This document shows, in pieces, positions 9,491 to 11,245 of a stretch of 64,000 nt of DNA (the stretch's first letter is position 1; every line of letters begins with the position of its first letter). The notes under the pieces were generated by a model. It saw only the letters and a program-made list of their open reading frames with translations. It ran no database searches and was not told the origin of the DNA. This DNA is from a virus (lineage: Duplodnaviria; Caudoviricetes), in IMG/VR virus record IMGVR_UViG_3300031555_004524, positions 96,001-160,000 of that record; one strand, 5' to 3'. The translations under genes and the position numbers were made by a program.

Positions 9491-11245
9491 TTATTTTTTA
9501 GGATTTACTAAACCATACTGTTCATAGTATTCATCTGGCACGTCGATATATCTATCAAATGGTACTTCTGGAGCAATATATTCAGAATGATCCAAATATG
9601 CCATTGCATAAATTTTTGGAGGTGCAGTTTTATATTCATTCATATACATGATTTCGAATACATGTGTTAAGAAGATTCTTACTGCATATCTCTTTGCTCT
9701 GGTATCAATATGTGCATCTGTTAATTTTCCATCCTGATATGTTTTGTATGTAACGGTTTTATCATCCCAGTTTTTGCTGATTAATGCATCTGCTACCTGT
9801 TCTGTATATTCATAGTTATTGTTCTTTTCATGTTCATATATTTTTCTTTCTCTATATAAACGTCCATATAAAGAATTTGGATGATTTGAACGCTTCAATA
9901 AACTATCACCAATCTTCCAACAGATTAATTTCAAATCTGCATTGTATGGAGGTTTAGCTAAAATAGCTGAAACTTCTGCATATGATAAGTATTTAGGAAG
10001 CTGTTTCTTTACAGGTCCAAATTTATTTCCATACATAGCAGTATTAATACTATTTGAAATTGACACTGGATTTCTTGTACTTACATTTCCGACAATAGTA
10101 ATAACACTTGGAACTACTCTATTTGAGTTAGCTAAGTATAAGCAATAATCGCATAATAATTCTGCAGGATCACTGAAAGTTGCCAATGAAATAGCTTCTA
10201 CTTCAGCTTTTGCTTTTCTTAAATGAATTGGGAATGGCTGATAATCGTAAGATAATTTGCCTTTCTCTTTAAGATCTTCAATAATTGATAAAGTTTTGGA
10301 ATCATCAATCATATATGTATCTTCCATATACCATAATAATTCTTTTCTCTGTTTTTCAATTAATTTTCCACTTAAGCATTCTTCGATATTCTGCATCCAG
10401 TCTAAAATATCTTTCCCATAATCTTTTAAGAAAGCAGTAATTGCTTTTCTCTGAGTTGCATCAAAATCTTTTGGATCTTCTGCTTCTGCAATAGGGTCAT
10501 AATTGCCATCTTCTGCTAAATATGGAACAAGCACCATATTTTTAAGATTATCGGAACCATAAACATCGTGCTCGATATCGAATGCTTTACCAAGATCTTT
10601 AAGAGCTTTCTTGAATTTTGTGCCGTATATATCTAAGCATAATAAAGAATCTTCAACTACTTTCATTTTAAGAGTATGAATTCTCTTAACAATACCTACT
10701 AATTCTTTAGCTTTTTCTTTACCAAGCCATGGATTGTTATTGTCATTCTGCCCAGCATATGATAAGAACTGATTTGCATTGTGGCATTTTGTAATATCTA
10801 AATATGCTAATAATGCTGCCGAAATTACTGGTCCAATACCCACTGTAGCTTTTGCCCATGAGCCAATAGGATGGTTATCAGTGTAAACATCGAGCATCTT
10901 CTTAATCTGGTTTTCTTCGTTACGTTTATTTCTAGCTAACCATTCCATAGATAATGGTACATCTCTACCTTCACCATCAACCTTCTGGCTAATAGCTCTC
11001 ACCTGATTGTCTTTTGCTTTTCTATCATCCTGAGACTGATAGTATGCATCTACCAAATAGCGTAAGTCTTCTTTGCTAATATGTACTACAGATTCCTGCA
11101 CTTTCTTACTTAAATTAGCGAGACCCTGAACATCGATTTCGATAGCATCGTCATATTTTTTCTGTTCTGCAGGTGTGACTTTTCTTGCTTTCTTTACATT
11201 CTGTTCCATTTTTTCTTTCTTTTCTGTTGTAACTTTTCTTGCCAT
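9491..11245 (-). CDS. Tas-like (TIGR-associated) IS110/Nop-domain RNA-binding protein, no recognisable nuclease, with a large insertion
   Basis: Coiled coil (LRYLVDAYYQSQDDRKAKDNQ...EENQIKKML), then HPIGSWAKATVGIGPVISAALL...FLSYAG and PYNADLKLICWKIGDSLLK...YGRLYRERK...AHIDTRAKRYAVRIFLTH, characteristic of the IS110 Tnp/Nop fold; no N-terminal DEDD RuvC; flanked by 36-nt arrays. Confidence 0.88.
   Translation of the reverse strand: MARKVTTEKKEKMEQNVKKARKVTPAEQKKYDDAIEIDVQGLANLSKKVQESVVHISKEDLRYLVDAYYQSQDDRKAKDNQVRAISQKVDGEGRDVPLSMEWLARNKRNEENQIKKMLDVYTDNHPIGSWAKATVGIGPVISAALLAYLDITKCHNANQFLSYAGQNDNNNPWLGKEKAKELVGIVKRIHTLKMKVVEDSLLCLDIYGTKFKKALKDLGKAFDIEHDVYGSDNLKNMVLVPYLAEDGNYDPIAEAEDPKDFDATQRKAITAFLKDYGKDILDWMQNIEECLSGKLIEKQRKELLWYMEDTYMIDDSKTLSIIEDLKEKGKLSYDYQPFPIHLRKAKAEVEAISLATFSDPAELLCDYCLYLANSNRVVPSVITIVGNVSTRNPVSISNSINTAMYGNKFGPVKKQLPKYLSYAEVSAILAKPPYNADLKLICWKIGDSLLKRSNHPNSLYGRLYRERKIYEHEKNNNYEYTEQVADALISKNWDDKTVTYKTYQDGKLTDAHIDTRAKRYAVRIFLTHVFEIMYMNEYKTAPPKIYAMAYLDHSEYIAPEVPFDRYIDVPDEYYEQYGLVNPKK

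Follow-up and report, generated by a model that had tools for sequence, protein, structure and literature searches.

A two-module helical wedge insertion in a nuclease-free TIGR-TasA of a jumbo phage

INTRODUCTION

What is the segment of some 250 residues that interrupts the Nop domain of a phage Tas protein, and what could it contribute to an RNA-guided complex? The question is raised by tasA, a gene in the window (the whole 64,000-nt stretch of DNA analyzed here) that belongs to a phage record of 248 kb and 29% GC. A preliminary description had proposed a ~255-aa helical insert of no recognizable family within the Nop domain of a nuclease-less Tas, and had offered a transcription blocker, a protein recruiter or an unrecognized enzyme as its possible identity. 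As to its existence the proposal holds: 9956-10726 corresponds exactly to TasA residues 174-430, that is, 257 aa that are modeled as all-alpha and match no known domain.

THE tasA GENE AND ITS SETTING

The gene is sited in the order gyrB-tasA-gyrA. Its extent, and the parts that lie outside the insertion, are as follows.

9491..11245, minus strand: tasA, 584 aa, open reading frame confirmed
11075..11245, minus strand: N-terminal extension, residues 1-57, K/E-rich, without a nuclease, its length highly variable among homologues
10727..11074, minus strand: coiled coil and first Nop half, residues 58-173, terminating in the YAG motif, the wedge stem and the invariant Trp173
9551..9946, minus strand: second Nop half, residues 434-565, with the junction pair Trp443/Lys451 and a putative processing dyad, Tyr546/His553

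The phage protein is a nuclease-free dual-repeat TIGR-TasA. A profile built from 117 homologues finds TaTasR (PDB 9MTY) at an E value of 1.3e-20 and SpTasH at 1.6e-10, and the best ten Foldseek rows are all TasH or TasR, but at E values of only 0.03-0.2. The putative dyad is well kept (Tyr546 in 102 of the 117 homologues, His553 in every one), and its spacing of 7 equals that of Y289 and H296 in SpTasH, while Trp443 and Lys451 are spaced by 8, both spacings being read from sequence only. In SpTasH the Tyr/His pair processes guides, and the aromatic-basic pair of Tas proteins opens the duplex. Residues 1-57, ahead of the coiled coil, are modeled mostly as low-confidence helix with no strands; neither RuvC nor HNH is present at the N-terminus in this model, and a Pfam search gave no nuclease match, in keeping with the N-terminal RuvC having been called absent before. 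Long K/E-rich N-termini occur in many other long-wedge TasA proteins, and one of 680 aa (P0153) carries an XRE-type helix-turn-helix at residues 7-51 (PF01381, E 9e-5).

DNA of this phage is present in animal faecal metagenomes, including a variant of ~4% divergence in one sheep gut run; none of the holders listed is an RNA data set, and a search among GenBank phages gave no match. Relatives with Pfam-labeled neighbors show the same gyrB-tas-gyrA order, and the site is kept in many. The gyrA of one relative contains a probable intein (L093:6808-9692, a weak PF14890 match).

TIGR ARRAYS AND GUIDES

9109..9441, minus strand: downstream dual-repeat TIGR array, ~8 units of 36 nt, between two terminator-like hairpins
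11450..11898, minus strand: upstream TIGR array, more degenerate, units of 36-37 nt, same repeat motifs
33442..33603, minus strand: orphan mini-array, 3-4 units with the same repeat motifs and then a hairpin, 22 kb from tasA

The downstream array, bounded by hairpins at 9449-9479 and 9068-9109, is clearly periodic, with 87 of 108 matches at period 36 against a shuffle maximum of 53 (n=200). Its edge repeat is AAATGAATTA and its loop repeat AATATAGTTA, with spacers of 8 nt by the parse made here; the two repeats measure 10 nt each, and both have AA at the start and TTA at the end. Further orphan mini-arrays with these motifs occur outside the window (G000:C1, ~12740-13080 and 15440-15590). All orphan mini-arrays share the tasA strand, lie distant from the sole tas gene and presumably act in trans. 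Dispersal is more extensive in a related 247-kb phage (G001, with a 168-aa wedge), in which 35-nt units are spread across at least 5 sites (G001:C1 105739, 158409-158725, 175160-175440, 186266-186376 and 204004-205831; L096-L103). Two long-wedge tas genes between gyrB and gyrA (L082:4879-6864 and L084:4852-6738) have gaps of just 120-155 bp and no adjoining array.

What do the guides target? Using spacer A and the reverse complement of spacer B as the query, with 20 guides from this phage and 31 from a relative, we searched the whole genomes of this phage and of a relative together with 23 related loci; there was no perfect match, and matches did not clearly outnumber those of control geometries. 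The targets thus probably belong to the host or to other elements. The array of the closest relative (74% protein identity; L090:1930-2335, compared with 9109-9441 of the window) ends in the same hairpin, but its spacers differ and its units are more degenerate, so that guides turn over faster than the protein. One spacer B (9227-9234, minus strand) starts with TTGACA, the sigma-70 -35 consensus, which in one guide among ~20 is probably chance.

THE INSERTION OCCUPIES THE TAS WEDGE

The position of the insert can be named from structural precedent. In the available text of Xu et al. (2026, bioRxiv 10.64898/2026.09.09.750476), the wedge of TaTasR is defined as G210-K230; our profile match to TaTasR stops at residue 212, just past the YAG motif, and restarts at 231, which identifies the insert as a wedge insertion. 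At both junctions that bound the opened target, the wedge splits off the displaced strand (PMC12045711); it also contributes to closing the substrate groove and, in SpTasH, to docking of the HNH domain (PMC13421893). Falling just after the YAG motif, the insertion is at the IS110 serine-loop site, as had been proposed; the site itself is no novelty, being the known wedge and a catalogued insertion hot spot.

What sets the phage protein apart is length. From the Gly of YAG to the Tyr or Trp that follows KRP or KPP there are 268 residues, compared with 14 in compact TasA relatives. Among 120 homologues the segment from YAG to KPP-Y spans a continuous range of 69-268 aa, and in many viral TasA proteins it measures 14 aa.

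A BASIC CORE AND AN ACIDIC EXTENSION

AlphaFold2 models the insert by itself as 11 helices with no strand of three or more residues (mean pLDDT 93.5, pTM 0.89). Where the preliminary description saw a single domain, the insert is two nested modules, a core split by an extension.

10673..10726, minus strand: wedge core helix 1, residues 174-191, with conserved Gly175, Lys178 and Ala179
10121..10672, minus strand: acidic helical extension, residues 192-375, net charge -12, 0-185 aa in relatives
9947..10120, minus strand: wedge core helices 2-4, residues 376-433, with Arg391, a lysine-rich loop and KPP, net charge +6

The four-helix core, of 65-85 aa, is present in 121 of 121 proteins and in the TasA of GC-rich viruses outside the clade. 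It runs as helix, loop, helix, turn with the Arg, helix; Arg391 is kept in 99% of the 121 proteins, and the C-terminal part of the core is net positive in 97.5% of them (mean +4.9). The pattern of helices 2-4 is helix-turn-helix-like, and it fits Myb-like bundles as well, but the core had no significant helix-turn-helix or Myb-like match in Pfam, the PDB or hhalign (full-insert model). In one sub-branch of core-only TasA proteins, Trp replaces Arg391 (L006, L013, L018, L066, L069, L074, L075 and L078).

In 71 of the 121 proteins the extension separates core helix 1 from core helix 2; it measures 60-185 aa where present and is net negative in 93% of the 71 (mean -7.8). It has no family-wide invariant residue and no invariant polar residue across seven sub-clades; its most conserved acidic residue is Asp366 (48 of 69), and no set of His, Asp and Glu is invariant family-wide.

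Known domains were sought within the insert as a whole. Pfam and PHROGs gave no significant match, and fold searches, called for earlier together with AlphaFold modeling of residues 174-430, returned no meaningful match among known structures for a segment that is nonetheless predicted to be folded. A RuvC or PD-(D/E)XK identity was rejected, the confident model being devoid of strands of three or more residues and the alignment of any invariant acidic residue; HNH was rejected likewise, no His being kept beyond one sub-clade. An origin from an array, or embedded guides, can be set aside too, as the insert has neither a loop repeat nor a 36-nt periodicity.

EVOLUTION OF THE EXTENSION

In two pairs, the extension has dN values of 0.35 and 0.24 with dS of ~2, giving a dN/dS of about 0.12-0.17 with dS near saturation, and these rates indicate purifying selection. 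Its non-synonymous change is ~2-5x that of the Nop halves. In a quickly built tree restricted to the Nop core, short and long forms are interleaved, with 12 changes over four length classes, and the starred branches force at least 3-4 changes per class; on this tree the extension has been gained or lost several times, and P0102 and P0106 apparently represent a separate expansion. Both gene and array are intact in core-only relatives, one of which occupies the same gyrB-gyrA site. As the extension, two thirds of the insert, is missing from such intact relatives with arrays, it is dispensable at the level of the clade. The preliminary description had weighed whether the segment might be unconserved, disordered and dispensable: the confident model and the purifying selection speak against the first two, and only dispensability holds, for the extension and at clade level.

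Does either module exist on its own? An insert profile run against 1.84 billion representatives gave 54 matches, all but one of them a Tas protein or a Tas fragment; among these representatives the insert is convincingly found, by sequence search, only inside Tas proteins. A repeat protein (P0154, E 5.8e-4) was considered as a stand-alone copy and rejected, its score summing five weak repeats and its hhalign probability being 0.15%; matches to designed PPR proteins are the same summed-repeat artefact. A search for a shorter, stand-alone extension found none. A split form was also entertained, but the extension has no relationship to the small genes 3′ of short-wedge tas. Two of these, encoding 106-114 aa (L086:6118-6438 and L088:6412-6756), do not resemble it, and the latter has a weak match to PHROG HNH families, in their non-catalytic part (E 1e-4).

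POSSIBLE FUNCTIONS OF THE INSERTION

According to the available text of Xu et al. (2026, bioRxiv 10.64898/2026.09.09.750476), TasA and dead TasR repress transcription through binding; the default output would thus be an RNA-guided roadblock, enlarged here. The suggestion of a transcription blocker coincides with the published default function of TasA itself.

The reading that we favor, and to which we give an even chance of being right, takes the insert for a non-catalytic arm: it would hold DNA at the unwinding junction and make the RNA-guided roadblock or repressor larger. Judging from family membership, a TasA dimer would bind a 36-nt guide, open a target of ~16 bp and remain bound without cutting. 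The insert, as an elaboration of the wedge loop, would be located at both ends of the opened bubble, where its basic core (Arg391, Lys178, Lys408/413) most likely grips the flanking duplex or the displaced strand, a grip that would substitute for the RuvC or HNH contacts of TasR and TasH. The acidic extension would have arisen from the loop joining core helices 1 and 2; it probably points away from the nucleic acid and supplies bulk, and it may bind protein. The outcome would be a larger, longer-lived RNA-guided roadblock, by which sites of the host or of competing elements are silenced or occluded.

An extra DNA contact is the best interpretation of a basic helical module whose tip holds a conserved arginine, and the kept junction and processing residues count toward the same reading. 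Against the grip, the helix-turn-helix identity of the core is without statistical support and one sub-branch has Trp for Arg391. Against bulk as the role of the extension, bulk by itself weakly explains why purifying selection should keep 185 folded residues, and acidic surfaces that evolve fast are often protein-binding.

In the main rival reading, which is less probable, the acidic extension would be a protein-binding, possibly DNA-mimicking, surface, with which the ribonucleoprotein brings a partner to the target or captures it there; this could be host RNA polymerase, a protein of the nucleoid or of segregation, or the type II topoisomerase encoded by the phage itself. Such a role would suit an extension that is predicted to be folded, is acidic, changes fast at non-synonymous sites yet is under purifying selection, and bears conserved aromatic and basic residues specific to sub-clades; the assistance of the SpTasH wedge in HNH docking (PMC13421893) is a precedent, and the retention of the gene between gyrB and gyrA in many relatives is consistent with it. 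However, no conserved partner gene adjoins the long forms, the gyrB-gyrA site is occupied by a short form too while long forms are also found elsewhere, and the extension shares just ~8-27% identity with most other sub-clades. The bolder proposal that the extension is a new-fold recruiting or DNA-mimic domain, by which this jumbo-phage clade guides polymerase, topoisomerase or a segregation factor to DNA, is doubtful.

It is also possible, though distinctly unlikely, that the extension accreted almost neutrally at a wedge tip that tolerates insertions, and is kept since Nop needs it folded. The continuous lengths, the repeated gains and losses and the apparently independent P0102/P0106 expansion would all be expected of such a process, and phage proteomes are often mildly acidic. 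Neutrality is nevertheless hard to reconcile with a dN/dS far below 1, with the retention of the extension in 71 of 121 homologues, including whole well-supported sub-clades, and with a core conserved over distant viruses.

Lastly, an unrecognized all-helical enzyme (a nuclease, glycosylase or transferase) delivered by the guide is very improbable: the insert is large, predicted to be folded and adjacent to single-stranded DNA, all-alpha enzymes exist, and the closest sub-clade has His190, His341, Asp260, Glu254, Asp315 and Asp366 in common, but all of these except Asp366 are missing in most other long forms (His190 in 14 of 69, His341 in 8 of 69), the homologue alignment offers no conserved candidate catalytic residues, and the model has no beta-sheet of the RuvC or PD-(D/E)XK kind. 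An acidic extension that varies and is often missing is unlikely either to catalyze or to bind DNA.

RELATION TO KNOWN SYSTEMS

The closest described counterparts are the dual-repeat TIGR-TasA system of FpTasA (Faure et al. 2025, PMC12045711) and the Nop core of TaTasR, which the phage protein resembles in its coiled coil, Nop domain and wedge site; with FpTasA it further shares the lack of an N-terminal nuclease and the arrays on either flank, in which edge and loop repeats alternate in 36-nt units (PMC12045711). It differs from both in its wedge, ~268 aa compared with 14-21, in repeats that begin with AA and end with UUA rather than with UG and CCA, respectively, and in the further arrays dispersed in the phage genome. 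BlTasA has an embedded guide, whereas the phage insert has none.

The available text of Xu et al. counts the wedge among measured insertion sites, reports that nuclease-free Tas proteins repress transcription, assigns large insertions to stem-loop systems and describes dual-repeat Tas proteins as compact, with minimal variation (bioRxiv 10.64898/2026.09.09.750476). Earlier publications cover TasA, repression and the general category of wedge insertions; in the portions of the literature available, no description was found of a large folded extension in a dual-repeat system, of a folded wedge of 150-270 aa or of this jumbo-phage clade, although figure rings in Xu et al. may show them. The phage protein is a clear exception to the statement that dual-repeat Tas are compact. 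Its relatives provide a natural series of wedge lengths (14, ~70-85, ~150-190 and ~200-270 aa) for probing the role of the wedge, and a predicted folded domain of 250 residues at the wedge tip marks a candidate fusion site, beside the unwound DNA, in the design of repressors, activators or editors based on Tas. If the extension does recruit a partner, it would constitute a fourth type of Tas effector besides cutting and plain blocking.

More distant likenesses exist. Three-helix bundles of the helix-turn-helix or Myb-like kind are similar to the core in helix pattern and basic charge, a resemblance only. The IS110/IS621 bridge recombinases (PDB 8WT6) have a homologous RNA-binding core up to a YAG-like motif (profile E 2.8e-4); unlike them, the phage TasA lacks the DEDD RuvC domain and a catalytic serine in the wedge, and it has TIGR arrays. 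Its loop after YAG is instead Asn-rich, with Pro172-Trp173 and no conserved serine.
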